Shown here one piece after another: positions 9,653-59,172 of a stretch of 64,000 nucleotides of DNA (the first letter of the stretch is position 1; the number at the start of each line of letters is the position of its first letter). The translations under genes and the position numbers were made by a program. Source of the stretch: a virus; the IMG/VR virus record IMGVR_UViG_3300050500_000054, positions 9,788 through 73,787 of that record; one strand, given 5' to 3'. The notes beneath the pieces were generated by a model. That model saw only the letters and a program-made list of their open reading frames with translations, was not told the DNA's origin and ran no database searches.

Positions 9653-11253
9653 TAACGTCTTCCAACTTCATGGAACGGAATTTCGTAGCCGTAGATGCTG
9701 ACACCTTGGTTGACGGTAGCTTCTTGGAAACGAAGTCTAACCATTGGGCCTACACCGAGTCGGCGTAGACGTTCACGACCTGATGTAAGAGCGTGTGAGA
9801 TTGCGGAACCAGCAGAACTGGTAAATCTACCTACCGTTGGAGTGACTGTAAGAGTTCCGCTTGCTTCTACTCGACTGAACATGCTCAGCATACCCCAGAA
9901 GTGTTCGATGTCTGGGTTGTTGGCGTGGTGGAACGGTCCGATTACATCCATATCGATAAGTGTAGATGTACCATCTCGGAACGTAGTTTGGTTGCCGATG
10001 TAGAGGACTCCGTTTGTTCCACCTAGAATAGTAGCTGGAAGTCCTGAGCTATCGTCGCAAGTCATTCCAGCACTTGGAGTGAATAGGTCCGTCTTGTGAG
10101 GGCCATACCAAGTCTTGGCTGTGAGGTTGTATGCTACCCAGCGATCTTCGTTGCTCGATCCAGCCGCAGCCAAGTGAAGCTCATATTGGTTACGAGATTC
10201 GTTATACTTAGCAAAGGCATTAGCAAATCGGGTGCGGTTGAAGTAGGTTCCAGTGTTGAACCACGGCTTTGTAGAATCTTCTGAGATGGATGTTACTGTG
10301 TTGGCCTTTAGTTGATAGACACCATCTGTGCTTAGGAAGTAGACTGCATCGTCGATAGTTACAATGCTATCAGGGGATACACAGCCCTGCTCACTTACCT
10401 GAGTGATAGATACATTCTCAGTTGATGAACCAAGAGAGATCAACCATGTTCCATTGTCACGGAACACAGCTAGTTGATTCTTCATTGGACCGAAGCCCAC
10501 AACTCCTGTAGCTGACTGGCCTACAGGATTGATGTTAAGGCGATGAGGCCATTGGTAAGTTGAGCCATCCTCGGTGAAGAAAATGACATCTTGTAGTCCG
10601 TGACCTTCAGTAGCACCCCAGAGACGATTACGCCATGCTACGATATTCTTCAGGCGTGGAACACCTTCGATGGTAGCGGGAGGGGATGCGAAAGATGAGG
10701 CTAGAAGGGTTAGAAGTTCCAGGCTTTCATCAGCGAGGTTATTAGTAACTGTAACACCTGCTGTATTTCCAGGGATGTCGATTAGGCGGAAGAAGTCTGA
10801 TCCTCCAGCCGCTGTTCGGTAGATGCGGCGGGCATCGATCTCATCCTCAGATACTGGAAGTGGTCCAATTGAGAGGTCGTCGTCCGCTAGGCCAACTGTT
10901 ACGCTAGTTGGGGATAGTGGTGATTCAGCTAGAACCTGTCCATCATCGTCTAGGACTAGGAAGCTTACTCGAACCATATAGTCGCCAGTTAGACCAGTTG
11001 ATGAGCCAGCTGCTAGAGCTGGAGGTTCTACAGGTGCTCTTGGAACGAGAACTCTTACGTTAGCTTCTGCGTCAATAGCGATATTACGTGATGGGGAATT
11101 TACCATCACTACCTGTTCATCTAGGATGGCAAATCGAGGCTTACGAGTTGCTGAGAGCGTAACTCCAGTTGGAAGTGTGAGTTGGGTCCCAACACCTGTA
11201 GATGGATCTACCTTATATAGATTTGTGCCAGATTGTGCTAGGTAAAATGCCAT
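9652..11253 (-). CDS. tail structural protein
   Basis: 533 aa; start/stop coupled (ATGA overlaps) to neighbours. Confidence 0.35.
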   Translation of the reverse strand: MAFYLAQSGTNLYKVDPSTGVGTQLTLPTGVTLSATRKPRFAILDEQVVMVNSPSRNIAIDAEANVRVLVPRAPVEPPALAAGSSTGLTGDYMVRVSFLVLDDDGQVLAESPLSPTSVTVGLADDDLSIGPLPVSEDEIDARRIYRTAAGGSDFFRLIDIPGNTAGVTVTNNLADESLELLTLLASSFASPPATIEGVPRLKNIVAWRNRLWGATEGHGLQDVIFFTEDGSTYQWPHRLNINPVGQSATGVVGFGPMKNQLAVFRDNGTWLISLGSSTENVSITQVSEQGCVSPDSIVTIDDAVYFLSTDGVYQLKANTVTSISEDSTKPWFNTGTYFNRTRFANAFAKYNESRNQYELHLAAAGSSNEDRWVAYNLTAKTWYGPHKTDLFTPSAGMTCDDSSGLPATILGGTNGVLYIGNQTTFRDGTSTLIDMDVIGPFHHANNPDIEHFWGMLSMFSRVEASGTLTVTPTVGRFTSSAGSAISHALTSGRERLRRLGVGPMVRLRFQEATVNQGVSIYGYEIPFHEVGRR

Positions 11254-39427: not shown

Positions 39428-39790
39428 ATGCTTAAGGTCATTGTTGATCGGCTGAAGTGGATCAGGGGTGAGGGTGTAAAAGCGTCGTTCCTCCTGAGGC
39501 CCGGTGATTACAAGATGTGCTGCATGGGATTTGCCTGTGAGGCTGCTGGTATTAGTAGAGAGAATCTCCTGAACAAAAAGGTTGTGACCGATGTAATTGA
39601 CGCGAGATGCGAAATCTCACACCCATTGCACGGGTTCTGCTCTCACTTAATGGTTGATGCCTTCGACAACACGGTTGCTGGTATTATTTACATGATCAAC
39701 GACAACGAGGCATTGACAGACTCCAAGCGTGAGTCCAGACTGATTGAGCTTGGTCGGATGGTAGACATCGACTTTGAGTTCATCAACTGA
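39428..39790 (+). CDS. hypothetical protein, paralog B of the EFIN pair
   Basis: 'DRLKWIRGEG...YKMCCMGFACEAAGISRENL...IDFEFIN'. Confidence 0.45.
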   Translation: MLKVIVDRLKWIRGEGVKASFLLRPGDYKMCCMGFACEAAGISRENLLNKKVVTDVIDARCEISHPLHGFCSHLMVDAFDNTVAGIIYMINDNEALTDSKRESRLIELGRMVDIDFEFIN

Positions 39791-40065
39791 TGCCCAAGGT
39801 CCTCAACATGCGTAACCTCAAAGGTCCTCCTGACTTGCAGGGGATCTATGTAGGTAGGCCCTCAGAGTGGGGCAACCCATTCTCGATTGGTAAGAATGGG
39901 ACGAGGGAAGAGGTCATGCAGCTGTTCAGGACATGGGTCATGCTAGATGCACAGACCCGCCTGAGGGAGAAGGCACGCACTCAACTACGAGGTAAGAACC
40001 TCATCTGCTGGTGCTGGCCTGCCGATTGCCATGCTGCTGTGTGGTTGGAGATAGCCAACTCATGA
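39790..40065 (+). CDS. DUF4326-family protein
   Basis: 'IYVGRPSEWGNPF...LICWCWPADCHA' pattern typical of DUF4326. Confidence 0.5.
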   Translation: MPKVLNMRNLKGPPDLQGIYVGRPSEWGNPFSIGKNGTREEVMQLFRTWVMLDAQTRLREKARTQLRGKNLICWCWPADCHAAVWLEIANS

Positions 40066-40204: not shown

Positions 40205-40654
40205 ATGATTGAGGTAAAGGGCAACCTGTGGACCTACAGCCCTGTTGATGTTCGTATCATCACTACCAATGGCTTTGTCAAGAAGAATGGCGAGGCTGTG
40301 ATGGGCAGGGGGTGTGCGCTTGAGGCAAAGCAACTATTCCCTGAGATAGCTAAGACACTAGGTGATCACATCACCAAGCAAGGTAACATCCCTGCCATCC
40401 TCATGACTGTCGAGGGTGAGTTTGAAACTTATCAGCTTGTATCTATGCCAGTGAAGCACACTTGGCATGAGGCTGCTGATCCACTGTTGATTGAAACCAG
40501 TGCGAAGATTCTCCGAGCATGGGCTGATTTGAATGACTGGGACACGATTGTGCTCCCTCGCCCAGGCTGTGGAAACGGTCAACTGCGGTGGGAGGACGTG
40601 AGGCCCGTGCTGGAACCCATCCTCGATGACAGGTTCCATGTGATTAGCTTTTGA
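40205..40654 (+). CDS. macro-domain protein (ADP-ribose binding/processing)
   Basis: 'VDVRIITTNGFVKKNGEAVMGRGCALEA' resembles the macro 'DAIVNAANxxLxGGGGVxxAIxxAAG' loop; C-terminal 'IVLPRPGCGNGQL' resembles 'IAFPxISTGxYG'. Confidence 0.45.
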   Translation: MIEVKGNLWTYSPVDVRIITTNGFVKKNGEAVMGRGCALEAKQLFPEIAKTLGDHITKQGNIPAILMTVEGEFETYQLVSMPVKHTWHEAADPLLIETSAKILRAWADLNDWDTIVLPRPGCGNGQLRWEDVRPVLEPILDDRFHVISF

Positions 40655-42916: not shown

Positions 42917-43063
42917 CGGTTACGTTCCTCTCAAGTGCAGGATGTCCTGGTTCGACAGCGAAGGTGCTGAACACTCAATGGGCGTCCTCAATGCGACTGA
43001 GGCACTCAGATGGGCTACCATCCTCAACATCAGCAAGTTCACGGTCAGCGACAGGGTGATGTG

Positions 43064-43240
43064 ATGTTCGACAGAGACGAATTCGTGAAGGATGTCAACG
43101 ATTACCTCGAGGACAACTACGGTGAGGATCCCCTCGAGAAACACGAGGAAGAAGAAGCTGTAGAGTCAGCTCTAGAATCTGGCAACTACAGCATCAAGGA
43201 CATCGCTGAGCACATCCTCGACATCCGGTGGGAGATATGA
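43064..43240 (+). CDS. small acidic protein
   Basis: MFDRDEFVKDVNDYLEDNYGEDPLEKHEEEE...; internal Met of ORF 43010..43240. Confidence 0.3.
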   Translation: MFDRDEFVKDVNDYLEDNYGEDPLEKHEEEEAVESALESGNYSIKDIAEHILDIRWEI

Positions 43241-44220
43241 GAGACACAGTGCCTTCGATGCTCATTCTCAGTGGCCTCCCTGCTAGTGGCAAATCGACCT
43301 ATGCCAAGAAGTGGGTGGCTGAGGAGCCAGGCGGTCGCTATCGCCTGAACTATGACGACCTCCGTCGAGAGATGTATGGCCCAGAGTTTGTGTGGAACCG
43401 TCTCCAGGAGGATCTCATGAAGGTCGAAGCAGTCAAGAGGGTGACTGCTGCGATAAACCTCGGGCATGATGTTGTGATTGACAATTGCAACCTCACCCCG
43501 AGGGTTCGAGATCACTGGCGCAACATTGCCAACAACCTCAGCGTCACCAATGTTGAGGAGCATGAACTGGACGTGCCTGTCAGAGAGTGTGTTCAGCGTG
43601 ACGAGCTGAGAGGTGACAACCGTGTGGGGAGAGCTGTCATTGAGAGGATGGCACTGTTCAATGGGCACATTGACTGGAAGGATCCAGAACAGTATGCCCA
43701 GAACATCAAGTTCGTAGTCGTGGATATGGATGGCACCCTCGCCAGCTGTCAGCATCGGGTGAAGTATCTCGATAAGAACTGGTGCCTCGCATGTGACCGT
43801 GCGAGTGAGCCAAAGTTCATGTCAGACAAGTGTGCTTGGTGTGGGACTGGCAACCTCAGGGGGAAGAAAGACTACCGTGGGTTCTTCGCTGGAGTAGCAC
43901 AGGATCCTCCAATCCCGGAGATTGTGGATCTGGTCCGCCTCCTAAGCATGGAGCACTACATCCTCATCGTCAGCGGTCGTCCCACTAGCGATGCGGGTAT
44001 CAGCACTGAGGAGTGGCTGAAGACAAACAACATCTCTTACAAGCACCTCTTCATGCGTAACGGTGGGGATCATCGTGATGATTTCATCGTCAAGCAGGAG
44101 ATTTGCGACCTCCTCCCAAAGGATCGAATCGCGTTTGTCCTCGACGATAGGGATCAAGTTGTGAAGATGTGGAGGGACAATGGAATCAAGTGCTTGCAGG
44201 TGGCTGATGGAAACTTCTAA
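43228..44220 (+). CDS. pnk: polynucleotide 5'-kinase/3'-phosphatase (T4 Pnk-like bifunctional)
   Basis: N-terminal P-loop 'ILSGLPASGKST'; C-terminal HAD phosphatase motif I 'VVVDMDGTLA' and later 'LDDRD'. Confidence 0.7.
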   Translation: MGDMRDTVPSMLILSGLPASGKSTYAKKWVAEEPGGRYRLNYDDLRREMYGPEFVWNRLQEDLMKVEAVKRVTAAINLGHDVVIDNCNLTPRVRDHWRNIANNLSVTNVEEHELDVPVRECVQRDELRGDNRVGRAVIERMALFNGHIDWKDPEQYAQNIKFVVVDMDGTLASCQHRVKYLDKNWCLACDRASEPKFMSDKCAWCGTGNLRGKKDYRGFFAGVAQDPPIPEIVDLVRLLSMEHYILIVSGRPTSDAGISTEEWLKTNNISYKHLFMRNGGDHRDDFIVKQEICDLLPKDRIAFVLDDRDQVVKMWRDNGIKCLQVADGNF

Positions 44221-44282
44221 GCCTGGCTCGTCCCGCTCCGCGTGGGAAGAGATCCGCGCCCTAATCTACAAGTGGCGAACGA

Positions 44283-44590
44283 TGGCGCTCAACCAGGCGT
44301 CATGGCACACCCCGCTGGGCCGTGGGTACGAGATATGCGCTGACGATCTCGACGCGCTCCTGGCGCGGCACACGCCGGAGGAGATGCCGGAAAGTCTGTG
44401 GGGACCCAATGGCAGGAATGCGATGACCGCCGTGGATTATGCCGAGGGGGATCCCATCCGCTGCATCTGCGGCCACCCAGGCGACACCCCAAGCTGCCCT
44501 GTTGACCACGATCAGATTCAACACGAGCGGGACAAGGGCGATCCGCCCGCCGTCCCAGTGGAGACAAGTGAACCGTATCAGCCACGGTAG
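44283..44590 (+). CDS. hypothetical protein inside GC-rich insert
   Basis: about 102 aa, GC-rich codon usage unlike neighbours; internal Met of ORF 44180..44590. Confidence 0.3.
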
Positions 44591-45017
44591 GAGGACTAAA
44601 GTATTCGTAAAGGTCCTCCACCAAGATCCATGCTGCTACTGTGGTAGCACATCAGGAACCATAGACCATATCGTGCCTCTGCATCCGAGGCGTAAGATTC
44701 AGTGGCAACCCGAGCAACGTCGAAGCTGGCCTAACCTGACTGCTGCTTGTATTCCTTGTAACAAGGCTAAGGGCAATCGTGAATTGGTAGAGTTCCTCGT
44801 TCGACAACGACGACAAGAGGTAAAGAAGGAAATCCATGAGCAAAGTATTAACCCTCAAGCGAACCGTTACCCAGAAAGAATGCCCGTGGCTCGATGCGGA
44901 CCTCCCAGCAGGGGCACAGGTGTGGTCATACGAAGGCTGCACATATGGCTGCACATCTCCAAGTGGTGTCGCCGTCTCCGCGAAAGCTGCGGAGGCACCT
45001 TTCTTCGAGCTTCCTAA
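44580..45017 (+). CDS. HNH endonuclease (start codon uncertain)
   Basis: 'CCYCGSTSGTIDHIVPL...NLTAACIPCNKAKGN' HNH motif; upstream GGTAGGAGGA SD-like but no ATG in frame nearby. Confidence 0.5.
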   Translation, partial: SHGRRTKVFVKVLHQDPCCYCGSTSGTIDHIVPLHPRRKIQWQPEQRRSWPNLTAACIPCNKAKGNRELVEFLVRQRRQEVKKEIHEQSINPQANRYPERMPVARCGPPSRGTGVVIRRLHIWLHISKWCRRLRESCGGTFLRAS

Positions 45018-45029
45018 GGATGCAGTCGA

Positions 45030-45944
45030 ATGAGTAAACCAACCCTCGCTGCCATCGTGGCACGGATGCAGGTTCCTGAGCTGACTGAAGGACACAAGGC
45101 AATCATCAATCGTGCCCTCAAGCAGTATGACACTGCTATCGTCCTCTTGGGAATCAGTGGTGCCCAACAGCCAACCGTAAACAACCCCTACTCGTTCGCT
45201 CAGAGGGTGTCTGTCATTCGGAGGCATGCACCTCACATCCACATCTACCCACTGCTGGACCACCCGAGCAATGAGCAGTGGACGAGGAACCTCGACAGAT
45301 TCCTCAGCCTGACGTTCCCTGGATACGAGGTATCTCTACTCTGTGGTCACAATAGTGGTGCTGAGAATGCCTACAAGGCACATGGAGGTAGATTCACGGT
45401 AGACGCATTCGCTGAGAACAGTGGGCAGCGAGGAACCGCAGTCCGTGAAAGCATCAGAGAGAACAACAGTGTGGACTTCCTCCGTGGTATGGCATATGCT
45501 CTGAACCAGCAATTCCACAACCCGTACCCCACTGTAGATATCGCTCTCATCGAGGGTGAAAGTGTGTGGATGGGGCGGAAGGCTGAGGATCCACACAATC
45601 TGTGGAGATTCCCTGGTGGGTTCGTAGAACCAGGCATGAGCCTCGAAGCCACTGTTCGTAAGGAGGCGTGGGAGGAACTTGGAGTGTCGAACCTGACTGA
45701 TCCAGTCTACCTCGGATCTACGATGATCGATGACTACCGCTACAAAGATTCTCCTGAGAGCATCCTCACCAGCATCTTCGCATGCAGTCAGATGAGTGGT
45801 CCTCGACCGAAGGCTGGAGACGACTTGGACGAAGCCCTTGCCATTCCGCTAGAGAACATCTTCGCTGACCCGAAGAGGTTCGTGATCTCAAACCACATCC
45901 CACTGGTCCATATCATCAAACAGAAAACGGGAGCCGCACTGTGA
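45030..45944 (+). CDS. bifunctional NMN adenylyltransferase / Nudix hydrolase (NadM-Nudix, NatV-like)
   Basis: N-terminal nucleotidyltransferase 'TEGHKAII' (HxGH-like); C-terminal Nudix box 'GGFVEPGMSLEATVRKEAWEELGV'. Confidence 0.65.
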   Translation: MSKPTLAAIVARMQVPELTEGHKAIINRALKQYDTAIVLLGISGAQQPTVNNPYSFAQRVSVIRRHAPHIHIYPLLDHPSNEQWTRNLDRFLSLTFPGYEVSLLCGHNSGAENAYKAHGGRFTVDAFAENSGQRGTAVRESIRENNSVDFLRGMAYALNQQFHNPYPTVDIALIEGESVWMGRKAEDPHNLWRFPGGFVEPGMSLEATVRKEAWEELGVSNLTDPVYLGSTMIDDYRYKDSPESILTSIFACSQMSGPRPKAGDDLDEALAIPLENIFADPKRFVISNHIPLVHIIKQKTGAAL

Positions 45945-47305
45945 CAAACCTCCTCCTGACCGATAGCTACAAGCACAGCCACGCAGAGCAGTATCCTCCT
46001 GGCACCAGCAAGGTCTACTCCTACTTCGAGAGTCGAGGTGGGAAGTATGACGAGACTGTGTTCTTCGGGCTGCAATATCTCCTCAAGAAATACCTCCAGG
46101 GAGCATTCGTCAAGCTCGATGACATCTTCGCTGCTGACAAGATGCTGTCCTCACACTTCGGGAAGAAGTTCGACAAAGCCAAGTGGCTGCACATCGTCGA
46201 GGCACACGCGGGCAGGCTCCCTGTAAGCATCCGTGCGCTGCCTGAGGGAACCGTGTGTGGAAACGGCAACGCGATGATGACGGTAGAGAATACCTGTCCT
46301 CAGTGCTACTGGGTGACGAACTGGATTGAAACACTCCTCGTCCAGACGTGGTATCCCACTACCGTAGCAACACAGTCCCGATACATCCGTAAGATGATCT
46401 TCGACTTCCTCCAGGCCAACGGCACGCCTGAGGGAATCGGGTTCAAACTCCACGACTTCGGCTTCCGTGGTGTGTCCAGTGTCGAGTCAGCTGGCCTGGG
46501 AGGTGCTGCCCATCTGGTGAACTTCTCAGGAACCGACACCTTGGCTGCCCTCTACATCGCCAGTGAATACTACGGTGAGGCATGTGCTGGGTTCAGCATC
46601 CCAGCATCCGAGCACTCTACCATCACAAGCTGGGGCAGGGAGCACGAGGTTGACGCCTTCCGCAACATGCTGGAGAAGTATCCAGAGGGCCTCGTTGCCT
46701 GCGTGAGTGACAGCTTCGACATCTTCAAGGCATGTGACGACCTGTGGGGAACGCAACTGAAGGATCGCATCCTCGCTCGTCCAGGCACTCTTGTCATCCG
46801 TCCTGACAGCGGTGATCCAATCTCCGTCATCATGACGATGCTGAGCATCCTCGGAGAACGGTTCGGGTATGAACTCAACAGCAAGGGATTCAAGTCCCTC
46901 GACCCGCATGTCCGCATCATCCAGGGTGATGGCGTGAATGCAGTCACCATCATGAACATCATCAGTGCCATGCACGACCAGGGCTGGTCGGCTGACAACA
47001 TCGCATTCGGGATGGGTGGAGCACTGTTGCAGGACCTCAACCGCGACACCAACAGGTTCGCATTCAAGTGCTCCTCGGTGACTGTCAACGGGGAGGAACG
47101 CGACGTGTGGAAGGATCCAACCACTGATGCTGGGAAGATCAGCAAGCGTGGGAGGTTGGTGGTTCTGCCTACGGCTCATGGGTTGGCGACATTCCGAGAG
47201 AATGCAGCGAACATCACAGACAACCAGTTGCATGAGGTGTTCCGCGATGGACGGTTGTTGGTGGATCAGAAGTTCTCCGACGTTCGAACGAGAGCGAGGG
47301 GCTGA
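45941..47305 (+). CDS. nadV: nicotinamide phosphoribosyltransferase (NAMPT/NadV)
   Basis: N-terminal 'TDSYKHSHAEQYP' and 'GFRGVSS', 'GTDT' motifs typical of NAMPT; 454 aa; ATGA-coupled to upstream NMNAT gene. Confidence 0.7.
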   Translation: MTNLLLTDSYKHSHAEQYPPGTSKVYSYFESRGGKYDETVFFGLQYLLKKYLQGAFVKLDDIFAADKMLSSHFGKKFDKAKWLHIVEAHAGRLPVSIRALPEGTVCGNGNAMMTVENTCPQCYWVTNWIETLLVQTWYPTTVATQSRYIRKMIFDFLQANGTPEGIGFKLHDFGFRGVSSVESAGLGGAAHLVNFSGTDTLAALYIASEYYGEACAGFSIPASEHSTITSWGREHEVDAFRNMLEKYPEGLVACVSDSFDIFKACDDLWGTQLKDRILARPGTLVIRPDSGDPISVIMTMLSILGERFGYELNSKGFKSLDPHVRIIQGDGVNAVTIMNIISAMHDQGWSADNIAFGMGGALLQDLNRDTNRFAFKCSSVTVNGEERDVWKDPTTDAGKISKRGRLVVLPTAHGLATFRENAANITDNQLHEVFRDGRLLVDQKFSDVRTRARG

Positions 47306-47508
47306 TGACTCCCAAAGAGAAGTATCTGTGTCGTGTTCTTGCTAGGCTGATTGATACCAAGTTCGATGGTGAGGTATACCAATTTGAAGAAGCGAACGAG
47401 GTGGTAGAGAGGTTCATTGAAGTTCACAACGAGGATACGCCTTGTCGCTACGAATACGAATGCGTAATGACAGGCCGGTGCCCTCGTGATCCGGTTTGTA
47501 ACAACTGA
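47305..47508 (+). CDS. small hypothetical protein
   Basis: 67 aa, ATGA-coupled. Confidence 0.3.
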   Translation: MTPKEKYLCRVLARLIDTKFDGEVYQFEEANEVVERFIEVHNEDTPCRYEYECVMTGRCPRDPVCNN

Positions 47509-47517
47509 GGAGTTGAG

Positions 47518-48003
47518 ATGATGACACTACCACTTTCCCTAGTAATTATCCACTTTCTGGGTGATTTCCTCGCCCAGAACGATTGGATGGCGATCCACAA
47601 GTCCAAGCGGTTGGATGCCCTCACGCTCCACGTCTTGGCCTACACGTCTGTCCTCTTTGTGGTCCTCATCTCCTTGGACTACAGGAGTGACTTGGCTCTA
47701 TTGTTCGCTGTGACCACCTTCCTCGCTCACTGGGTGACGGATTTCTTCACGTCCAAGCTGAGTAGGAAGCTGTTCTGGATGACTGGTCCATACACCGGAG
47801 TTACCCAGCTGAGGATGGGACAGCCAGAGAATGTTGAGGGTGCTACTACCATGCACTTCCCAACAGGTGAAACCGTCTACATCGACCACGAGGGCCAAGG
47901 CATACAGTCCCGCCACTGGTTCTTCTGCTGGATTGGATTCGATCAGGTCCTCCACTACGTCCAGCTGGCTGTGACGTATCAGTGGTTGTTTGGAGGCGTG
48001 TGA
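47518..48003 (+). CDS. multi-pass membrane protein (DUF3307-like HxxxDxxxQ motif)
   Basis: 'HFLGDFLAQNDW' and three or more hydrophobic helices. Confidence 0.35.
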   Translation: MMTLPLSLVIIHFLGDFLAQNDWMAIHKSKRLDALTLHVLAYTSVLFVVLISLDYRSDLALLFAVTTFLAHWVTDFFTSKLSRKLFWMTGPYTGVTQLRMGQPENVEGATTMHFPTGETVYIDHEGQGIQSRHWFFCWIGFDQVLHYVQLAVTYQWLFGGV

Positions 48004-48158
48004 TGTTCATGTGCAAGAACTGCCACGACGAGAATGCACACTTCGGATTTTTCAAAAGCATCGGTCCATGTGAAGGCTGCGGTAAGACAGCTGCTTGCAT
48101 TGACTGCCACAACATGAACTGCTGTCCTCGAAAGAAAGAAGCAGGCCAAGAAGACTAA
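48003..48158 (+). CDS. small Cys-rich protein
   Basis: MFMCKNCHDENAHFGFFKSIGPCEGCGKTAACIDCHNMNCCPRKK; about 51 aa; hand-translated. Confidence 0.3.
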   Translation: MFMCKNCHDENAHFGFFKSIGPCEGCGKTAACIDCHNMNCCPRKKEAGQED

Positions 48159-48200
48159 GAAACCGTAACGAAGATTTCCCCCTCGACCCTAGGAGCATCA

Positions 48201-50003: not shown

Positions 50004-50525
50004 ATGGACCGCACAATCTCAATCATCGCTGGCCTCATCATCGCTGCCGCCGTAGTCAAGGGCTGCTCGTCGTCTACGCCTGCGGCTCCGACTCCTCCAT
50101 CCCAGCAAACCGCCGTGGATGCCGTCCCAGCACCTGAGCCGTTCTGCCTCTCCTTCGCTCCGAAGCTGGAGGAACCCAATGTCCAGCAGAGTCAGGCTGG
50201 CCCGAGAGTTGAACTGGAGTATTACCCGATCCTCAACACCGTCACTGGTAAGCTGATCTCCCGCTACGAGGTCCTCTTCCAGCGAATGAGTTTTCAGAAC
50301 GTCTGGGAAGATGTATCCATCCCATACGTCCAAGTTGAGGTCGATCCAAACAGAGACAAGCATTTCATCTCATGGCTGATTCGCAACGACCCTGACGGTG
50401 AGGGACGTGGTGGACCGAATGGCACCTACCGTGCTCTAGTTCGTGCTCACCTGGGTGAGGAATGCCACCCTGCTCGTCGTCTAACTGACTGGGCAACCTC
50501 AGAGACATTCTCGGTAAGCCAATGA
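50004..50525 (+). CDS. lipoprotein
   Basis: 'AAVVKGC' lipobox then Pro/Ala-rich linker. Confidence 0.35.
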   Translation: MDRTISIIAGLIIAAAVVKGCSSSTPAAPTPPSQQTAVDAVPAPEPFCLSFAPKLEEPNVQQSQAGPRVELEYYPILNTVTGKLISRYEVLFQRMSFQNVWEDVSIPYVQVEVDPNRDKHFISWLIRNDPDGEGRGGPNGTYRALVRAHLGEECHPARRLTDWATSETFSVSQ

Positions 50526-51571
50526 CAAGCCCATACGGAACACTACACCTCGTAGCCAAGAACGGAGAAGTCGTGACCAGTTGGCACAGCTATCCATCGA
50601 TCTACAACCTCGGCCACAAGGCTATTGACAAGCTCCTCGACCGCCCTGTTCTGGTAGAGGAGAAAGTCGATGGCAGCCAGTTCAGCTTCGGTTACTTCCC
50701 CGATGCAGAACCCGGCCTCGAACTGAAAGTGAAGTCAAAGGGAGCTATCATCCATGTGGACGCGCCTCCAGCAATGTTCCGCAAAGCTGTGGAAACGGTT
50801 AAGAGGATCGCCACAGAGGTGGGACTACGCAGCGGGTGGACATACCGTGGAGAGGTCCTGGCGAATCCACACCACAACACTCTCGCTTACGATCGTGCGC
50901 CCACTGGGAACATCATCATCTTCGACATCAACACTGGGGAAGAGGCATACCTGGATTACGATTCGAAGGCCGAGGAAGCAAAGCGCCTTGGTCTGGAAGT
51001 CGTCCCGCTCGTGTTTCGAGGTATCGTTCCAAGTATTGAAGCCTTTCGAGAACTGATCGACAAGCCCTCGATCCTTGGCGGTCAGAAGATGGAAGGTGTC
51101 GTGATCAAGCCAGAGGATTACCTCTACTTTGGTCTTGACAAGAAAGTCCTCATGGGCAAGTTCGTGAGTGAAAAGTTCCGTGAGGTCCACGGAGCAAGTT
51201 GGAGGGCAGCGAATCCGACCACTGGAGATATCATCCAGGTTCTCGGAGAACGCTACCGCACCCCTGCACGGTGGAACAAGGCTATTCAGCATCTCGACGA
51301 GGCTGGTAAGCTGGAATACTCCGTGCGGGACATTGGTAAGCTGATTGGTGAGATCGGTCCTGACATCGAGCGTGAGTGCAAGGATGAAATCATGGAAGAC
51401 CTCTATGCCTACGCTCGTAAGCACCTCATCCGTCACTGGACCAGAGGGTTCCCCGAGCACTACAAGGAACTCCTCCTGGAGCGTCAGTTCGAGAAGTATC
51501 AGGAACCCCCAGACATCGCACCTCCTGGGGTGGAAGTGTTTGAACAATTCCCGGAGGAACCCAAGTCATGA
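50522..51571 (+). CDS. RNA ligase (Rnl2/DRB0094-like nucleotidyltransferase)
   Basis: adenylylation motif I 'EEKVDGSQF' (KxDG), downstream 'WTYRGEVL', 'EGVVIK', 'KFVSEKFRE' fit ligase motifs III-V. Confidence 0.6.
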   Translation: MTSPYGTLHLVAKNGEVVTSWHSYPSIYNLGHKAIDKLLDRPVLVEEKVDGSQFSFGYFPDAEPGLELKVKSKGAIIHVDAPPAMFRKAVETVKRIATEVGLRSGWTYRGEVLANPHHNTLAYDRAPTGNIIIFDINTGEEAYLDYDSKAEEAKRLGLEVVPLVFRGIVPSIEAFRELIDKPSILGGQKMEGVVIKPEDYLYFGLDKKVLMGKFVSEKFREVHGASWRAANPTTGDIIQVLGERYRTPARWNKAIQHLDEAGKLEYSVRDIGKLIGEIGPDIERECKDEIMEDLYAYARKHLIRHWTRGFPEHYKELLLERQFEKYQEPPDIAPPGVEVFEQFPEEPKS

Positions 51572-52579: not shown

Positions 52580-52948
52580 ATGCACAAGATTTTCGTATAC
52601 GGCACTCTCATGGCAGGCTGTGGCAATCACCGCCTCCTGAAGGACTCGAAGTTCCTCCAGGGCGGCCGAACGCTACCGCACTTCACAATGATCTCCCTCG
52701 GTGGGTTCCCTGGTGTCCTCCCAGACGGCAAGAATGCCATCGAAGGTGAGGTCTACGAGGTATCCGATCAGGACCTCATCCATCTGGATCAACTGGAAGG
52801 GCATCCAGACTGGTATCGTAGAACGCCGACACGACTGCAAGACGGCACGGAGGTGGAAATTTACCTCTACCCGGAAGCACCGCCTCGGGTTCATGTAATC
52901 GAATCAGGCAGTTGGAGACAGTATCGAGGAGGAGTGCATGGCCGTTAG
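52580..52948 (+). CDS. gamma-glutamyl cyclotransferase-like (AIG2/GGCT fold)
   Basis: 'KIFVYGTLMAGCGNHRLL' (YGTL...G) plus catalytic Glu candidate 'IEGEVYEV'. Confidence 0.6.
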   Translation: MHKIFVYGTLMAGCGNHRLLKDSKFLQGGRTLPHFTMISLGGFPGVLPDGKNAIEGEVYEVSDQDLIHLDQLEGHPDWYRRTPTRLQDGTEVEIYLYPEAPPRVHVIESGSWRQYRGGVHGR

Positions 52949-54146
52949 CAAACCCATGATGATCTACAGCGATAACGCCACTATCGGCTGTGATCCAGAA
53001 GTATTCGCCAGAGACAAGGAGGGCACGGTTGTGGCATCCGATGTCCTCATCCCTGCGAAGGGACTGTTAGTGGATGGAGGTTACGGTCTAGCATCTGTGG
53101 TTCGTGATGGTGTTCAGATTGAACTGCACCCTTCACCGACCTCGTGCCGAGCAAATGTCAGCAATAGTCTCCAGAAGTGCTTCAGGACACTTGCCAAGGC
53201 GGCCACTGAGAAGGGCCTCCAAATCTCCTTCGATCAGGTCGTGACACTGGACAAGAAGGCACTCGCTGGGATGTCTGAGGATGCTCAGCGCCTCCGGTGT
53301 CTCCCAAGCTTCAACGCCTACAACGCTGTCGGTCAGACAGTGGATGGCAAGAAGTATCGGAAGCGTAGTGGTGCTGGTCATATCCACGTCGGGTCCGGTG
53401 TTTTCGGTCCTGACAAGACTTACATCGATCACAACAAGGGCATCAAGGCATTCGACATGCTTGTTGGCATCCCTGCTGTCCTCTGCGATCGTGATCCAGG
53501 TGCTGCGGAACGTCGTAAGGTGTATGGCCTGGCTGGTGAATATCGCCTCCCAAGTCACGGTGTGGAATACCGCACCTTGTCGAACTTCTGGCTTCGCAAC
53601 TATGCCCTGTTCAGCCTCTTCGCTGGGATGGCAAAGATTGCACATGGGGTGGCGATAACTGAATACTACGTCAAGCGGCATGCATACATCTTCAAGGCAA
53701 CTGGGATGTATGACCGCTACCACGACAGGCCGATGGAAATCCTCATGGACGGTGTGGATGAGATGGACTTGCAGGATGCCATCAACCACAACGACTTTGA
53801 CCTCGCCCTGAAAATCTACGATAAGCACGTAGAGCCATTCCTCAAGACCGTAAAGTCTGAGTATGGCATCATGGGACAGCGGCAGTTTTCTCCGTCGAGT
53901 GGAAACCTCGACGAGTTCCGTCACTTTTTCACGAAGATCAAGGAAGAGGGCCTCGGTTACTGGTTCAAGGAAGAACCACTTCAGCACTGGCTTACGAAGC
54001 GTGAAGGGCACGGCACCGGATGGGAGGATGGCTTTGTACCCACAATCCGTGCTGACATGGCAGCTACGAAGAAGAAAATCATCAAGGTCGGAGCCAACGT
54101 GGCGAGGCTCCGAGATGCTCGTGGTCGATTCGCCAAAGTTGCATAG
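52938..54146 (+). CDS. glutamine-synthetase-like carboxylate-amine ligase (GCS2/YbdK-type amidoligase)
   Basis: N-terminal 'IGCDPEVF' (GxExE-like) and central 'GAGHIHVGSG' matching the YbdK 'GxHVHVG' motif. Confidence 0.5.
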   Translation: MAVSKPMMIYSDNATIGCDPEVFARDKEGTVVASDVLIPAKGLLVDGGYGLASVVRDGVQIELHPSPTSCRANVSNSLQKCFRTLAKAATEKGLQISFDQVVTLDKKALAGMSEDAQRLRCLPSFNAYNAVGQTVDGKKYRKRSGAGHIHVGSGVFGPDKTYIDHNKGIKAFDMLVGIPAVLCDRDPGAAERRKVYGLAGEYRLPSHGVEYRTLSNFWLRNYALFSLFAGMAKIAHGVAITEYYVKRHAYIFKATGMYDRYHDRPMEILMDGVDEMDLQDAINHNDFDLALKIYDKHVEPFLKTVKSEYGIMGQRQFSPSSGNLDEFRHFFTKIKEEGLGYWFKEEPLQHWLTKREGHGTGWEDGFVPTIRADMAATKKKIIKVGANVARLRDARGRFAKVA

Positions 54147-54155
54147 GGAGGTCAG

Positions 54156-54650
54156 ATGGAAACAAACGTAGTTGCAGAGGGTGGAGATGTGGTTATCTCC
54201 ACACGCCTTCGACGCACCAAAGATGGTCTGATGGTGAATGTCAAGGTTTCCCCAGAGGTGGAGGAACTATTCCGCACCTGGGGTGGGGCACGGACGGAGG
54301 AGTGTAAGCTCTATGGCAGGATGTGGAAGCCTGTCACTGAGACTCAGCAGCTCCAGCTGTGGCGATGCTTCCAGACGCATCACAACACCGGAGGACACTC
54401 ATCAACCCCAATCTTCTGGAAGGGCGGACGGCTGCCTATGGAGGATGGAATTGTTGACATCTCGTTCATTCGACTCGTAGGAGCGAGCAACCCTGAGGGA
54501 GTTACCTTCTACGTAGATACCCTCATTGGCTACTCTGAACTTGATTCCGTCGCGGATAAGATCAAGACAGCCACTGGATGGTTCTATGGCGAATTCGTCA
54601 AGCCTGTGGAACTGAAGATTGACGTGCAACTGTTGAATGGAGGACGCTAG
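54156..54650 (+). CDS. hypothetical protein within the amidoligase cluster
   Basis: 164 aa, ATG 8 nt after previous stop. Confidence 0.3.
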   Translation: METNVVAEGGDVVISTRLRRTKDGLMVNVKVSPEVEELFRTWGGARTEECKLYGRMWKPVTETQQLQLWRCFQTHHNTGGHSSTPIFWKGGRLPMEDGIVDISFIRLVGASNPEGVTFYVDTLIGYSELDSVADKIKTATGWFYGEFVKPVELKIDVQLLNGGR

Positions 54651-54655
54651 TTGCC

Positions 54656-55423
54656 ATGCCGAAGAATCGTGTCAAGAATGTAGGTGTTGAACTGGAGGGT
54701 GGTTGGATTAAGCCTCCCCAGCCACTACAGCGAGATGGTAGCCTGAAATTCCACGACATCGTGCATTACGAGGCAGGTCGTGGACTTGCTGGACCTGCTC
54801 CTGCTGTAGCTGCATTCAAGAAGCTCTACGTCACTGGTGCAGTGTTGGAGGAACACAAGATCCCTCAGGTAGGTGAGATCGTCAGTCCAATTCTGGAAGT
54901 TCCAGAAGTGGAGGACTACATCAGGACCAACTACCCTAATATCGTAAACGAAACCTGTGGCCTCCACGTCCACATGAGCTTCAAATACAAGCTGAACTAC
55001 CAGCGGCTGATGACGGAGGACTACACTCGGAAGATGGTAGTAGGGCTGATTGACTGGGCGAAGAGGAATGACCTCCCGAAGGATCACCCTCTCTGGCCAC
55101 GGTTGATGAAGCCAAACCACAACCACTGTGCTCATGTTTACCTCGGTGATAACCAGGTGACTATCGCCGGAAAGGATTACAACAGTCGAGGAACCAACTA
55201 CAGCCGGTATACAGCAATCAACTACTGTTGGGCACAGCACAAGACAGTCGAGTGTCGCCTACTCAGTATGTTTGACACGGCTGACCAAGCGGTGAGTGCG
55301 GTGGGTGAGGTGATTCGTATCACGAACCTCTTCCTCAGCAAGATCAAGAGTCGGGAGAAGAAGTTCAGTGTGGTGATCAAGCGCGGTGCAACCCTTGTGG
55401 ATCACCGTCGGATTCGAGTTTGA
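54656..55423 (+). CDS. second GS-like amidoligase (Amidoligase_2-type)
   Basis: N-terminal 'VGVELEGGW' (GxExE) and 'CGLHVHMSF' (HxH) motifs. Confidence 0.45.
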   Translation: MPKNRVKNVGVELEGGWIKPPQPLQRDGSLKFHDIVHYEAGRGLAGPAPAVAAFKKLYVTGAVLEEHKIPQVGEIVSPILEVPEVEDYIRTNYPNIVNETCGLHVHMSFKYKLNYQRLMTEDYTRKMVVGLIDWAKRNDLPKDHPLWPRLMKPNHNHCAHVYLGDNQVTIAGKDYNSRGTNYSRYTAINYCWAQHKTVECRLLSMFDTADQAVSAVGEVIRITNLFLSKIKSREKKFSVVIKRGATLVDHRRIRV

Positions 55424-55436
55424 GAGGAGACTGTCA

Positions 55437-56660
55437 ATGTGTGTGATTCTCGTAGCGCGTAAGGACATTCGGCCGTCGGAGGAAATGATCCAGTTGTCGT
55501 GGGATGCCAATCCACAGGGTGCTGGTGCAGCATGGAAGGATCCTGAGGGGCTGGTGAACTGGCGGAAGGGAATGACGCTGGAAGAGGTGCAGGAACTGAA
55601 CAAGAAGCTGCCCTTCCCGTATGTTCTACACTTCCGTGTGGCATCTGCTGGAATGCTGAAGATCCCTGGCCTCAACCACCCGTTCCCGGTGGAGAAAGAT
55701 GCGTCGATCTCCACTGTGGGTCGATTCGTCGGTGATGTCGTGTTCCACAATGGCCACTGGGCCAGCTGGAAGCACGAAATGAAGGACCTCGCTGCTAAGG
55801 GTGGTTGGAAGATCCCGGAGGATCCGTGGTCTGACAGTCGTGCAATGGCCTGGGTTGCGAGCCAGATCGGTGTCGGATTCCTCGAATTGCTCGATGAGAA
55901 GATCGTCCGTTTCGGTCCTGATGGTGTCCATATCATGGGTCATATGGGTCACGGTGGGTGGGACGAGGTGGATGGGATCCTCGTGTCGAATAGGGGGTGG
56001 GAAAAAAGAGTCACTCACTCGAACTATACGACGCCTCCTGCGTCCATGTGTGGGGTAGAGAGGGCCGGGGGTACCTCTCGCAACACGACCTTTCAGAGAT
56101 CGACAGGAGAGCTTGCTCAAACAGAAGGAAGCGAGGGAAATCAGCAAAAAGCAGTACAAGCGACGAATCAAGCTGCTACGGGCGGAGATCAAAACGGCCA
56201 AGAAACGGTAGACACTTACGAGAACGAGGAACTCCAGAAGTGGCTTCGGGATCATCCTCACAACGCTCACAGACGGCATGTGGCGTTGAATGAGGAGAAG
56301 TGCCAGGTGTGCTTCACAAAGGCTGCAAACGTGTTCGATGGTCCGAATCAGAGATTCGGCCGTTGCTGGAGCTGCTATGATCGGCAGAAGAAGGCTCCGA
56401 TCATCGAGGCAGCTATCGTGGTTCCTGCTAGTGTGGCGATTGCAGCGAAGTATCACCGCTGTGAGCAGTGCAAGATCAACAGTGCTGCAACACAGTTGAC
56501 AGACGGGAGCAAGAAGAGGATCTGTGGAACCTGCTGGAGGCAGTTGGGGAAGCCGGATGTGGAATACAACGGTATGAAGATCACAGAAGGCAACAACAAC
56601 ACAGAGTTGGAACGTCGCAGGGCTGATGCAGCACGAGGTATCAGTCGAGTGGTTGGGTAG
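55437..56660 (+). CDS. class-II (Ntn) glutamine amidotransferase-like protein with C-terminal zinc ribbons
   Basis: start 'MCVILVA' (Cys2 nucleophile after Met removal) with SD GAGAGGAGA; C-terminus has four CxxC pairs. Confidence 0.5.
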   Translation: MCVILVARKDIRPSEEMIQLSWDANPQGAGAAWKDPEGLVNWRKGMTLEEVQELNKKLPFPYVLHFRVASAGMLKIPGLNHPFPVEKDASISTVGRFVGDVVFHNGHWASWKHEMKDLAAKGGWKIPEDPWSDSRAMAWVASQIGVGFLELLDEKIVRFGPDGVHIMGHMGHGGWDEVDGILVSNRGWEKRVTHSNYTTPPASMCGVERAGGTSRNTTFQRSTGELAQTEGSEGNQQKAVQATNQAATGGDQNGQETVDTYENEELQKWLRDHPHNAHRRHVALNEEKCQVCFTKAANVFDGPNQRFGRCWSCYDRQKKAPIIEAAIVVPASVAIAAKYHRCEQCKINSAATQLTDGSKKRICGTCWRQLGKPDVEYNGMKITEGNNNTELERRRADAARGISRVVG

Positions 56661-56668
56661 GAGGAACA

Positions 56669-57517
56669 GTGATCAGAATCGACGAACAGGAAGCAGGAGT
56701 CATCAAAGCTCTCCTCATCGCACGAGGGGATCAGTATGACTTGGATCTGGTAGAGAAGATGGACCAGAGGCGGAAGTTCAACGACGAGACACTTCTGGAT
56801 GTTCTGGTCAAGCTGGTCAGTGGTCGGTTTGTCACCAATAGGGTGAGTAACGCCACTGTCAAGGCGCTCAGAGGTGCGCTGTTGACTCCGAAGGAGTTGG
56901 TGGAGGCGATAGCACAGGATGAGAGCTTCAAGTGTGCAGGATGTGCTCAGGAGCTGTCTGAGGCAGAGATGGTCAGCGTGGATGGCACGTTGCTCTACTG
57001 TGCCGCCTGTGTGAGTCCTCTCACCGTGCGTTGCCCAGGTCACGGTAAGCCTATTGCACTTCCAGAAGGTGCAATTAAGCGAATCGTGAGGAAGACAATC
57101 AAGGAGTGTGCTCAGTGTGCTAATCCTGAGAGGACACCTGCTCCTGAGGTTCAGGATGGTCCTGATAACAGAGAGCCGCCCGTGTTTAACGCTGCACCTG
57201 GATTTGGTGGCTGGTTGGGAGTAGGCACGCCAGCACCGCTTGATGAAGGATTGCGGGATGCAATAGAGCGGCAGAATCGGTTGGATGAGGAGTTCTTCAG
57301 ACGTGAACAGGAACGTGAGGAGCTGAGACGTAGGGTTGTCATTGGTGGCAGGCGTATGGGTCGTGGTGCGCGTGATCATGCGGAGCCTGAGCCTCAGACG
57401 CTTCGTCCTCCAGATCGTGCATGGGCTACCATCGCAATGCAGCATCGTACAGAACCATTGGCCTACGATATTGAAACCCCGGAGCCAGCAGCACAGCCGC
57501 CGGAGGAGCGAGAGTAA
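56669..57517 (+). CDS. zinc-ribbon protein (CAGCAQ...CAAC, CPGHG, CAQC)
   Basis: 282 aa with central Cys cluster and Arg/Glu-rich C-terminus. Confidence 0.3.
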   Translation: MIRIDEQEAGVIKALLIARGDQYDLDLVEKMDQRRKFNDETLLDVLVKLVSGRFVTNRVSNATVKALRGALLTPKELVEAIAQDESFKCAGCAQELSEAEMVSVDGTLLYCAACVSPLTVRCPGHGKPIALPEGAIKRIVRKTIKECAQCANPERTPAPEVQDGPDNREPPVFNAAPGFGGWLGVGTPAPLDEGLRDAIERQNRLDEEFFRREQEREELRRRVVIGGRRMGRGARDHAEPEPQTLRPPDRAWATIAMQHRTEPLAYDIETPEPAAQPPEERE

Positions 57518-57912
57518 TGCGGATAGAGCAGTTCGATCAGATCCTCAACTCTCGAACAGTTCCTCCGAATGAGTTGATGGAGCAAAACCTGGATGAACTT
57601 GAGAAGCGTGTAGAGGAATATCTCAAGGAGGCAAAGAAGAGGGAAGCGGAGGAGGAGCAGGAGGATCTCCAACAGATCAGGGAAGGCAAGGAGAAGGACG
57701 AGTTCGAGGATGACTTCTTCGATCCAGAGGATTTCTACGAAGCCCTGGATCTGTTGGAGAGTTGTGCAAAGGTCCTGAAGAAGCTCATGAGTGATGATCC
57801 GAATGAGGAATATCCGCCAGCGTTCCTGAACAAGCTGTCGAACCTCTCTACGGATTGTTACTCGTTCGTCAATCGTTTCATCGTCAACAAGGATGAGGAG
57901 TCAGAGGTATGA
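57517..57912 (+). CDS. acidic coiled-coil protein
   Basis: 131 aa, Glu/Asp-rich. Confidence 0.3.
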   Translation: MRIEQFDQILNSRTVPPNELMEQNLDELEKRVEEYLKEAKKREAEEEQEDLQQIREGKEKDEFEDDFFDPEDFYEALDLLESCAKVLKKLMSDDPNEEYPPAFLNKLSNLSTDCYSFVNRFIVNKDEESEV

Positions 57913-58796
57913 TCTACGTATTTCGTCAGGCCAGCAGCAAGGGTGCTCGTGAGTTGTCGGAGAGTATCGCATGGGGACGACGGGCACGGAATGAGGATCT
58001 CCTCCGCCGTCGGGTGAAGGCTGGGGATCTGGTCATCGCGTGGGGCGATCATGTGAACCTACCGGATGGCGTGTTGGCGTTGAACAACGTCCCTCTCTCG
58101 AACAAGTTCACGGATGCGGAGAAGCTGAAGGCTGCCGGTGTGCCTACGGTGGAAGTGTCGAGGGTGATGCCTCAGCCAGTTCGCCAGACGGCTCCTCCTG
58201 ATCCTGCGCTGAACGCATTCGCTCGGTTGCTCAACACTGTAGACCTCCGTGGTTTGGGCCACAGGAGTTTGGAGGTAATCCGACAGATCACTGATGTTCA
58301 GGAAAGGATCAACACCTATCTGGAAGCTGTTGCTCAGCCTGCTCCTGTTGCTCCGCCTCCACAGGTAGTGGGCGAGTGGGTTGGCCGTAACAACAACCAC
58401 GTCGGTGGGAATGATCTCCTCAATCCACCCCGTCTGCCTGACTTCTACGTGAAGAAGGAAGTCCTGAAGGGTGAGGTTCGTATCCACAGCTTCCTCGGCA
58501 AGTCAATTCGAGCGGGTGTGAAGGCTCCTCGTGAAGGTGTCGAGCAGCATCCGTGGGTGCGGAGTTTTGACGGAGGTTGGCGTATCGTGTATGACAACTT
58601 CAAGTCAAAGGGTGCCCAGCGTGAACTCGCAGCGAAGGCTGTGGAGGCACTTGGGTTGCAGTTCGGTGCAGTGGACATCGGGATCAAGGAGGATGGCAGT
58701 CTGATCGTGCTGGAAGTGAACAGAGCGCCCGGTCTTGAAGGTGGGACGGTTACGGCCTATGCGGGTGCAATTCAGCAGCATCTGGAGACGGTATGA
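57909..58796 (+). CDS. ATP-grasp ligase (RimK/GshB-like)
   Basis: C-terminal 'FGAVDIGIKEDGSLIVLEVNRAPGLEG' is the classic ATP-grasp Mg/ATP-binding segment. Confidence 0.6.
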   Translation: MIYVFRQASSKGARELSESIAWGRRARNEDLLRRRVKAGDLVIAWGDHVNLPDGVLALNNVPLSNKFTDAEKLKAAGVPTVEVSRVMPQPVRQTAPPDPALNAFARLLNTVDLRGLGHRSLEVIRQITDVQERINTYLEAVAQPAPVAPPPQVVGEWVGRNNNHVGGNDLLNPPRLPDFYVKKEVLKGEVRIHSFLGKSIRAGVKAPREGVEQHPWVRSFDGGWRIVYDNFKSKGAQRELAAKAVEALGLQFGAVDIGIKEDGSLIVLEVNRAPGLEGGTVTAYAGAIQQHLETV

Positions 58797-58953: not shown

Positions 58954-59172
58954 GTGAGAGCATTCCGGTTAGTGCGGAAAGAGGATGTTTCAGGAGTGTC
59001 TGGAACTGGAGTTGTTGCGGAGGGAGTGGAGTTCCATGATGGACAGGTTGCAGTGAGCTGGTATGGACGCTATCACTGCGTTAGTATTTGGCCGTCTATC
59101 AAGGATGTAGAGGCCATTCATGGGCATGAAGGCAGGACCACTGTAGAGTGGGCAGAGAGGGAGATGTCATAA
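58954..59172 (+). CDS. hypothetical protein
   Basis: 72 aa. Confidence 0.3.
   Translation: MRAFRLVRKEDVSGVSGTGVVAEGVEFHDGQVAVSWYGRYHCVSIWPSIKDVEAIHGHEGRTTVEWAEREMS

Follow-up and report, generated by a model that had tools for sequence, protein, structure and literature searches.

Does an uncultured phage carry its own means of rebuilding nicotinamide adenine dinucleotide (NAD+), and, if so, to which of the known phage pathways do its enzymes belong? The question is raised by two overlapping genes, here termed natV and nadV, in a 64,000-nucleotide stretch of viral DNA (positions 9,788 to 73,787 of IMG/VR record IMGVR_UViG_3300050500_000054; hereafter, the window). A preliminary description had placed at positions 45030-47305 a fusion of nicotinamide mononucleotide (NMN) adenylyltransferase (NMNAT) and Nudix domains together with a nicotinamide phosphoribosyltransferase (Nampt), and both open reading frames (ORFs) are found there on the + strand. 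Judged from their sequences, the two genes most probably constitute a NARP2-type phage NAD+ salvage module, of the kind described for phage KVP40. The gene pair and its sequence signals are as follows (aa, amino acids; nt, nucleotides).

45030-45944, + strand: natV-like gene (ORF A), ATG start, 304 aa, predicted NadM-type NMN adenylyltransferase/Nudix fusion
45060-45095, + strand: ATP-binding loop ARMQVPELTEGH (residues 11-22) with the (H/T)xGH signature, from alignments A1 and A2
45432-45446, + strand: GTAVR (residues 135-139), SxTxxR-type second NMNAT motif, aligned to TEFR/TAIR of 2qjt/2qjo
45615-45686, + strand: Nudix box GGFVEPGMSLEATVRKEAWEELGV (residues 196-219), from conservation across relatives
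45941-45944, + strand: natV/nadV stop-start overlap GTGA (4 nt), read directly from the sequence
45941-47305, + strand: nadV gene (ORF B), GTG start, 454 aa, predicted nicotinamide phosphoribosyltransferase (Nampt)

The motifs quoted in the preliminary description were located within these features: TEGH at residues 19-22 and the Nudix box at residues 196-219 of ORF A, and TDSYKHSH at residues 7-14 of ORF B.

Predicted Pathway and Its Relation to KVP40

In the predicted pathway, NadV would join nicotinamide to phosphoribosyl pyrophosphate (PRPP) of the host to yield NMN, a step that would use the conserved Nampt core, including an autophosphorylated histidine (His225). The N-terminal NadM-type domain of NatV would adenylylate NMN with ATP to yield NAD+, and the Nudix domain, as we infer with reference to PMC3680494, would probably recycle ADP-ribose (ADPR) to AMP and ribose-5-phosphate. 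The payoff for the phage would be an NAD+ pool that is held up during infection, including under depletion by TIR, SIR2, SEFIR, and RES effectors.

The same two enzyme types make up NARP2 of KVP40 (NadV, KVP40.0264; NatV, KVP40.0162), and the expected chemistry, in which nicotinamide, PRPP, and ATP give NAD+, is shared; the earlier interpretation of the pair, a Nampt plus a NadM-type NMNAT-Nudix protein, thus agrees with the enzymes that form the pathway in KVP40. Osterman et al. named this pathway NARP2 and reported that it cancels type I Thoeris and DSR2, that its genes raised NAD+ during infection, that 94% of the phages with the NARP2 Nampt clade also encode an Nmnat, and that the pathway occurs in ~1.1% of sequenced phages (bioRxiv 10.1101/2024.02.11.579819). 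Unlike NARP1, NARP2 also cancels the RES-domain system aRES (10.64898/2026.01.28.702374). Earlier, Iyer et al. had catalogued NadV and NadM in phages, proposed a counter-NADase role, and found that all NadM-carrying phages have NadV as well (PMC9503650).

This gene content is present in the window, where the Nampt-clade and Nmnat genes occur in one phage genome and are, moreover, adjacent and overlapping. The preliminary description had stated that the same pair exists in KVP40, which holds for the gene content but not for the operon; in KVP40, natV (94507-95532) and nadV (138214-139707) lie 43 kb apart, whereas the window genes overlap. The carriers also differ, namely a 77-kb uncultured phage here and the T4-like jumbo phage KVP40 there. 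NARP1 (Adps and Namat) and NARP3 (NadR and PnuC) are further phage routes to the restoration of NAD+ in the face of NADase defences. The window locus is without Adps, the Namat clamp, NadR, and PnuC, and is therefore neither NARP1 nor NARP3; its predicted substrates are PRPP and nicotinamide, in contrast to ADPR or nicotinamide riboside in NARP1 and NARP3.

Arrangement of the Two Genes

The natV frame ends in ...GCA CTG TGA, and the GTG start codon of nadV (45941-45943) overlaps the TGA stop codon (45942-45944). Such a GTGA overlap is a signature of translational coupling, and because the two cistrons overlap, they would be co-transcribed and are probably translationally coupled, as had been proposed. 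GGGAG is found at 45929-45933, 7 nt 5' of the nadV GTG, and AAGGA is located 9 nt 5' of the natV ATG. A hairpin is present at 44974-44996, and in scans of 42-52 kb for promoters and terminators, the counts were those expected by chance.

Nampt Identity of NadV

By profile, structure, and residue comparisons alike, ORF B is a canonical Nampt, and its Nampt function is very likely. Membership of the Nampt/NadV family is defined by NCBIfam model NF006629 together with Pfam PF18127 and PF04095; ORF B scores 597.3 bits with NF006629, above the curated cutoff of 405, and its Pfam matches are NAPRTase (1.5e-58, 198.8 bits) and NAMPT_N (1.3e-33, 115.6 bits), with PHROG 448 matched at 1.8e-159. The closest solved structures in a PDB search are the human, rat, and Xanthomonas NAMPT proteins, with E values down to 2.3e-146, and the identity amounts to 49% over 449 aligned columns for rat NAMPT (2g95) and to 44% for KVP40 NadV.

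The catalytic residues of Nampt, in human/rat numbering, are Tyr18, Phe193, Asp219, His247, Asp279, and Asp313, and the binding residues are Asp16, Arg196, Arg311, Gly353, Asp354, Gly383, and Gly384 (PMC3665594); all of these are identical in ORF B when it is aligned to rat NAMPT (2g95). The preliminary NAMPT assignment is borne out by the NF006629 score and by this comparison, in that every catalytic and PRPP/NMN-binding residue, whose loss would have spoken against it, is present. The autophosphorylated His247 of human Nampt corresponds to His225 of ORF B, and identity in the rat alignment extends to Arg40, His191, Glu246, Arg392, Lys400, Lys415, and Lys423. The sole change noted is Ser275 to Ala, at a residue that lies outside the published list. 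Among 118 well-conserved columns, ORF B is changed at three, which is the median of 43 non-redundant phage relatives.

Namat of SpbetaL1 is 36% identical to Nampt and has an aromatic clamp, F392 and Y396, which has been swapped to the human residues as F392G and Y396K (PMC12774641). At these positions, mapped by inference from the two swaps, ORF B has Ala361 and Asp365 in place of the clamp aromatics and therefore looks Nampt-like. No Prs/Adps-like gene is found among the gene calls covering the contig.

NatV as a Remote NadM-Nudix Protein

ORF A comprises a predicted NadM-type NMNAT domain (approximately residues 1-160) and a Nudix domain (approximately residues 166-304). Pfam reports NUDIX at 2.6e-14, a match that, like those of ORF B, far exceeds chance; the NMNAT (cytidylyltransferase) half escapes Pfam at E<=0.01, so that profile and fold evidence is needed for it. 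Profile A2, which consists of 15 ORF A homologues with no canonical NadM-Nudix protein among them, has as its top matches two solved NadM-Nudix proteins over both domains (2qjt, 2e-29; 2qjo, 1.5e-24), with separate values against 2qjt of 3.5e-12 for the N-domain and 6.5e-14 for the C-domain. Archaeal NMNATs come next in this search, at 1e-8 to 1e-6 over the N-domain, and NrtR 3gz8 also ranks among the best matches. Similarly, Foldseek was run with an AlphaFold2 model of ORF A (predicted local distance difference test score, pLDDT, 83; predicted template modelling score, pTM, 0.50), and its six best matches are NadM-Nudix chains (1.4e-17 to 2.7e-15, 338-355 columns), with 2qjt, 2r5w, and 2qjo among the aligned structures; the runners-up are single-domain Nudix proteins at 1.6e-8, so that NadM-Nudix is ahead by nine orders of magnitude. 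The proposed NMNAT-Nudix fusion is thus upheld by two methods that both rank NadM-Nudix structures first, and ORF A appears to be a remote but genuine relative of this family.

The relation to KVP40 NatV stands at the profile level, where hhalign gives 98.9% probability (E=1.8e-17, 275 columns), and not at the pairwise level, where BLASTP gives a borderline match (E=0.002, 27% over 75 aa). The two proteins are ~20% identical, and the window NatV is 37 residues shorter (304 vs. 341 aa), with a 2-residue insertion in the HxGH loop, Thr in place of the first His, and Lys in place of the Nudix Arg. In domain order and motifs, the window NatV resembles the bacterial NadM-Nudix proteins of Francisella tularensis (2QJT/2R5W) and Synechocystis (slr0787, 2QJO), whereas its subfamily is without ~45 residues of the helical region that runs from the SxTxxR motif to the Nudix domain in those proteins. 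Its nearest likeness is a short phage NadM-Nudix subfamily, represented by Tunturi_5 and the huge phages LR756500-504, which shares the length of ~300 aa, the GRFQVxxLHxGH loop, and the natV-then-nadV order. The window NatV is 27-38% identical to this subfamily, and ORF A homologues in general are 30-38% identical at best. ORF A is accordingly a member of a divergent short subfamily that the curated NadM-Nudix models miss.

The subfamily loop, GRFQVxxLHxGH (~40 related loci), carries a 2-residue insertion relative to the canonical GRFQPFHxGH. Within it, ORF A keeps R12, Q14, and H22, which are 96-99% conserved in relatives (H22, 96%), and Thr19 replaces the first His of HxGH (TEGH, 19-22), as it does in several relatives; this replacement is allowed by the (H/T)xGH superfamily signature. 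R139 in the second motif is invariant in 155 relatives. R12, H22, and R139 are reported to be the ATP-binding residues of archaeal NMNAT (Saridakis and Pai 2003). ORF A also keeps W84, Y115, and H289. In the Nudix half, the metal-binding glutamates E212, E215, and E216 are present and are invariant or 99% conserved across the family, so that the loss of REx2EE glutamates, which had been named as a point that would count against the assignment, is not seen; both glycines of the Nudix box are likewise invariant and present, as are G196, G197, D235, and R237.

Related Loci and Gene Order

The natV-nadV arrangement recurs among relatives. One peptide pattern retrieved 66 IMG/VR loci with a NatV relative, and in 48 of the 66 a Nampt gene (at least 36% identical) follows downstream on the same strand within ~1.3 kb, immediately adjacent to natV in 27 of those 48. 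In 12 further loci, the partner of natV is a Nampt-like gene of much greater divergence, and in another six, no Nampt gene stands within 4 kb. Likewise, natV precedes nadV in Tunturiibacter phage Tunturi_5 (gp218-gp217), in LR756502 and LR756504 among the huge phages, and in two other contigs of metagenomic origin, and the short NadM-Nudix subfamily as a whole has 1,723 cluster representatives at E<=1e-30 in a library of 1.8 billion proteins.

The 12 loci with divergent partners are L018, L023, L034-L036, L040, L042-L044, L046, L051, and L071 of the IMG/VR set; their Nampt-like proteins are 25-28% identical to the window Nampt, and NF006629 gives 128-160 bits (cutoff 405) for those of L023, L034, L040, and L042. 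In L007, the genes downstream of the NatV homologue that flank a LAGLIDADG ORF were considered as a split Nampt and rejected, BLASTP having found no similarity.

DUF3307 was considered as a third component of the module and was also rejected. Counted from natV, DUF3307 homologues are recurrent neighbours, no more than 4 kb upstream in 24 related viral loci; in the reverse direction, natV lies within 6 kb in only 26 of 80 DUF3307 loci, many of which are near-duplicates, and the closest DUF3307 relatives are without natV. Any link of DUF3307 to NAD+ salvage is accordingly tentative. The window itself encodes a DUF3307 membrane protein (47518-48003, + strand) with invariant His, Asp, and Gln in helices and a 41-residue insertion.

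Alternative Readings and the Divergence of NatV

Several points weigh against the assignment to NARP2, one regarding the role of the pathway and the others regarding NatV. The enzymatic activities of NadV and NatV are predicted ones, and the anti-defence role is carried over by analogy, entirely from KVP40. It is conceivable, if doubtful, that the pair is instead a general auxiliary metabolic module that supplies NAD+ for phage replication and whose anti-defence effect is incidental. In cells that have no defence system, NARP2 still raises NAD+, and its description as salvage preceded any link to defence (10.1101/2024.02.11.579819); NadV is frequent among phages of medium and jumbo size (22-33%; PMC9503650), and the contig is rich in nucleotide-metabolism genes (ThyX, dCMP deaminase, MazG, and nucleoside deoxyribosyltransferase). 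However, expression of NARP2 carries a metabolic cost and is toxic, so that a strong selective benefit is to be expected (10.1101/2024.02.11.579819; 10.64898/2026.01.28.702374), and natV and nadV stand among candidate counter-defence genes, outside the nucleotide-metabolism block. The metabolic and anti-defence readings are compatible and do not exclude each other.

With regard to NatV, the scores of ORF A with the NCBIfam NMNAT/Nudix models (the PRK05379 models, by which membership of the bifunctional NadM-Nudix family is defined) are <=51 bits against cutoffs of 354-449, the top model being NF003786 with 51.3 bits (cutoff 397). The AlphaFold2 model is weak (pLDDT 48-64) at residues 131-170, which include GTAVR. 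An archaeal NMNAT with the H16A mutation is reportedly left with only a few percent of its activity, which bears on Thr19. The loci of the Nampt comparison also yield 53 non-redundant relatives for ORF A; of the 57 columns with a conservation of 85% or more, ORF A is changed at 19, the median being 2 and the next worst 7; against 155 cluster representatives, it is changed at 16 of 56 columns, the median again being 2. It is thus the most deviant of the 53 relatives at conserved positions, whereas the neighbouring Nampt is typical (3/118). The changes are concentrated in the NMNAT half, with YGSRDS becoming LCGHNS after beta-4, together with F13M and R151L; the Nudix half has R211K and W271A. 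The Arg of the REUxEE motif, Arg211, is Arg in 96% of relatives and Lys in ORF A, the single other exception seen being an Ala in L006, and the Glu of Gx5E in the Nudix box is Met. The Nudix box that had been described is therefore canonical only in part: relative to GX5EX7REUXEEXGU, the three REUXEE glutamates and the glycines stand, and the X5E Glu and the Arg do not.

These changes allow a reading in which NatV would have an impaired NMNAT half, or one put to another use, so that host NadR, NadM, or PncC with NadD and NadE would convert NMN and ORF A would act mainly as a Nudix protein. This reading draws on the contrast between an extreme outlier in NatV and a typical NadV, on the NMNAT domain as the site of most deviations, those in the conserved beta-4 loop motif among them, and on the failure of Pfam to detect the cytidylyltransferase domain. 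It is nevertheless unlikely, given that ORF A keeps all strictly invariant positions of the subfamily as well as R12, H22, and R139, that an intact natV ORF recurs without change in three samples, and that its tight coupling to nadV is preserved. Furthermore, the positions of R107 and D108, which are conserved in the subfamily, are occupied by Ile or Arg and by Lys, respectively, in the active Francisella (FtNadM) and Synechocystis (syNadM) enzymes, and therefore do not represent universal catalytic residues.

Similarly, the Nudix half could have been weakened by the loss of the Nudix-box Glu-Arg pair (Gx5E to Met and Arg211 to Lys) and could have become a module for ADPR binding or for regulation; Nudix domains that bind ADPR without catalysis are known, and NrtR 3gz8 is among the best profile matches. 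The presence of the three metal-binding glutamates and of the invariant G196, G197, D235, and R237 makes this an improbable explanation too, and the Arg-to-Lys change is conservative, with an Arg directly before it (RKE). A broader variant, that NatV has lost or changed one of its activities, is more doubtful: the locus would be a Nampt-plus-Nudix module dependent on the adenylyltransferases of the host, or one domain would be retargeted, one possibility being that the Nudix or NMNAT domain acts on other ADPR-derived molecules, such as immune signals. Finally, it is highly improbable that ORF B is a NARP1-type Namat acting on nicotinamide and ADPR-pyrophosphate, for although Namat is homologous to Nampt and KVP40 Nampt is weakly active on ADPR-pyrophosphate, ORF B shares 49% identity with vertebrate Nampt (vs. 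36% between Namat and Nampt), lacks the clamp aromatics, has no Adps beside it in the contig gene calls, and is coupled to an Nmnat gene, a hallmark of the Nampt clade (10.1101/2024.02.11.579819).

In the NARP2 reading, which is preferred here, the pattern of changes in ORF A is read as accelerated divergence that lowers, and does not remove, confidence in its NMNAT and Nudix activities; relaxed constraint and adaptation are the candidate causes. Because ORF A is an outlier in its own subfamily, these activities are less certain than the Nampt activity of ORF B; a NatV function is likely, with this divergence as a real caveat.

Phage Genome and Its Samples

The window lies within ERZ27257655 k141_4192334, an ENA metagenome contig of 76.8 kb, which is clearly of phage origin because genes for the large terminase (TerL), the portal, and the major head protein are present on the minus strand at 21-28 kb; the small and accessory genes form a + strand block from ~29.8 kb onward. 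The ends of the contig are joined by a second contig from another sample, and the genome is therefore probably complete and circularly permuted. The natV/nadV locus occurs in three samples with a single-nucleotide difference over ~3.8 kb and is thus not an assembly artefact. A megablast search of 43000-48200 against GenBank phages gave no match, i.e., no close cultured relative.

Separately, at positions 16824-20047 of L154 (contig outside the window), the gene for DNA polymerase A seems to be divided, with a 613-aa protein that carries a UDG domain, an Endonuclease_7 ORF of 124 aa, and a DNA_pol_A fragment of 330 aa in tandem. Genes for ThyX, dCMP deaminase, MazG, and dGTP_diPhyd_N lie close to the split DNA_pol_A in L154.

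Neighbourhood of natV and nadV

The following features of the + strand block surround the gene pair.

39790-40065, + strand: DUF4326 gene, just upstream of the macrodomain gene
40205-40654, + strand: macrodomain gene, 149 aa, PDB match to DarG/TARG1 (OARD1), 5m3i, E=2.6e-8
43228-44220, + strand: Pnkp, T4-type polynucleotide kinase/phosphatase (Pfam/PHROG)
44439-45017, + strand: HNH endonuclease, intact, likely start GTG 44568, CxxC...DH...N...CxxC (Pfam/PHROG)
47305-47508, + strand: Cys-rich 67-aa ORF, its ATG sharing one base with the nadV stop (TGATG)
50522-51571, + strand: RNA ligase (Pfam/PHROG)
58954-59172, + strand: 72-aa ORF with a precomputed Pfam match to PF26761 (Acb5, anti-CBASS by name)

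The preliminary description had placed the pair in an accessory block with Pnkp, an HNH-associated GC-rich insert, and a macro-domain gene. Pnkp and an intact HNH endonuclease are indeed present, and the GC-rich stretch (0.63, 44200-44600) proves to be separate from the HNH gene, namely a 136-aa ORF without homologues. The macro-domain gene is supported by its PDB match to DarG/TARG1, and its 149-aa product falls below the Pfam Macro cutoff (E=0.005). DUF4326 has been placed in the rhodanese-phosphatase superfamily and linked to ADPr processing (Iyer et al.), the family having been proposed to act on ADPr-linked phosphates; with the macrodomain protein, it forms a candidate anti-DarT or ADPr-processing pair. 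Besides natV and nadV, the candidate counter-defence genes of the + strand block are those for DUF4326, the macrodomain protein, Pnkp, the RNA ligase, and the Acb5 match, and the block as a whole fits an accessory or counter-defence island, on circumstantial grounds.

The Cys-rich 67-aa ORF is a possible third cistron of uncertain membership, with no Pfam or PHROG match and no homologue in related loci, and the 72-aa Acb5 ORF has no NCBIfam match. The HNH ORF stands directly 5' of natV and in the natV frame; in its place, the public gene calls list a 65-aa ORF (44836-45033) that overlaps the HNH tail. Pnkp and the RNA ligase are 6 kb apart on the same strand and correspond to the classical RNA-repair pair against anticodon nucleases. 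Further downstream (52580-58796, + strand), a cluster encoding GGACT-like cyclotransferase, phiEco32-like COOH-NH2 ligase, amidoligase-like, and ATP-grasp-like proteins resembles a module for peptide or amide-bond modification.

Significance

The pathway in question has already been described as NARP2, and its current understanding is unchanged by the present locus. For annotation pipelines and anti-defence surveys, it matters that the curated NadM-Nudix models miss the short subfamily to which NatV belongs, and the gene block around the pair is a plausible place for further counter-defence genes. The short NadM-Nudix/Nampt operon emerges as a widespread syntenic module of uncultured phages, and the window pair would represent one more, fairly divergent, case of a known phage strategy, i.e., the rebuilding of NAD+ against NADase immunity.

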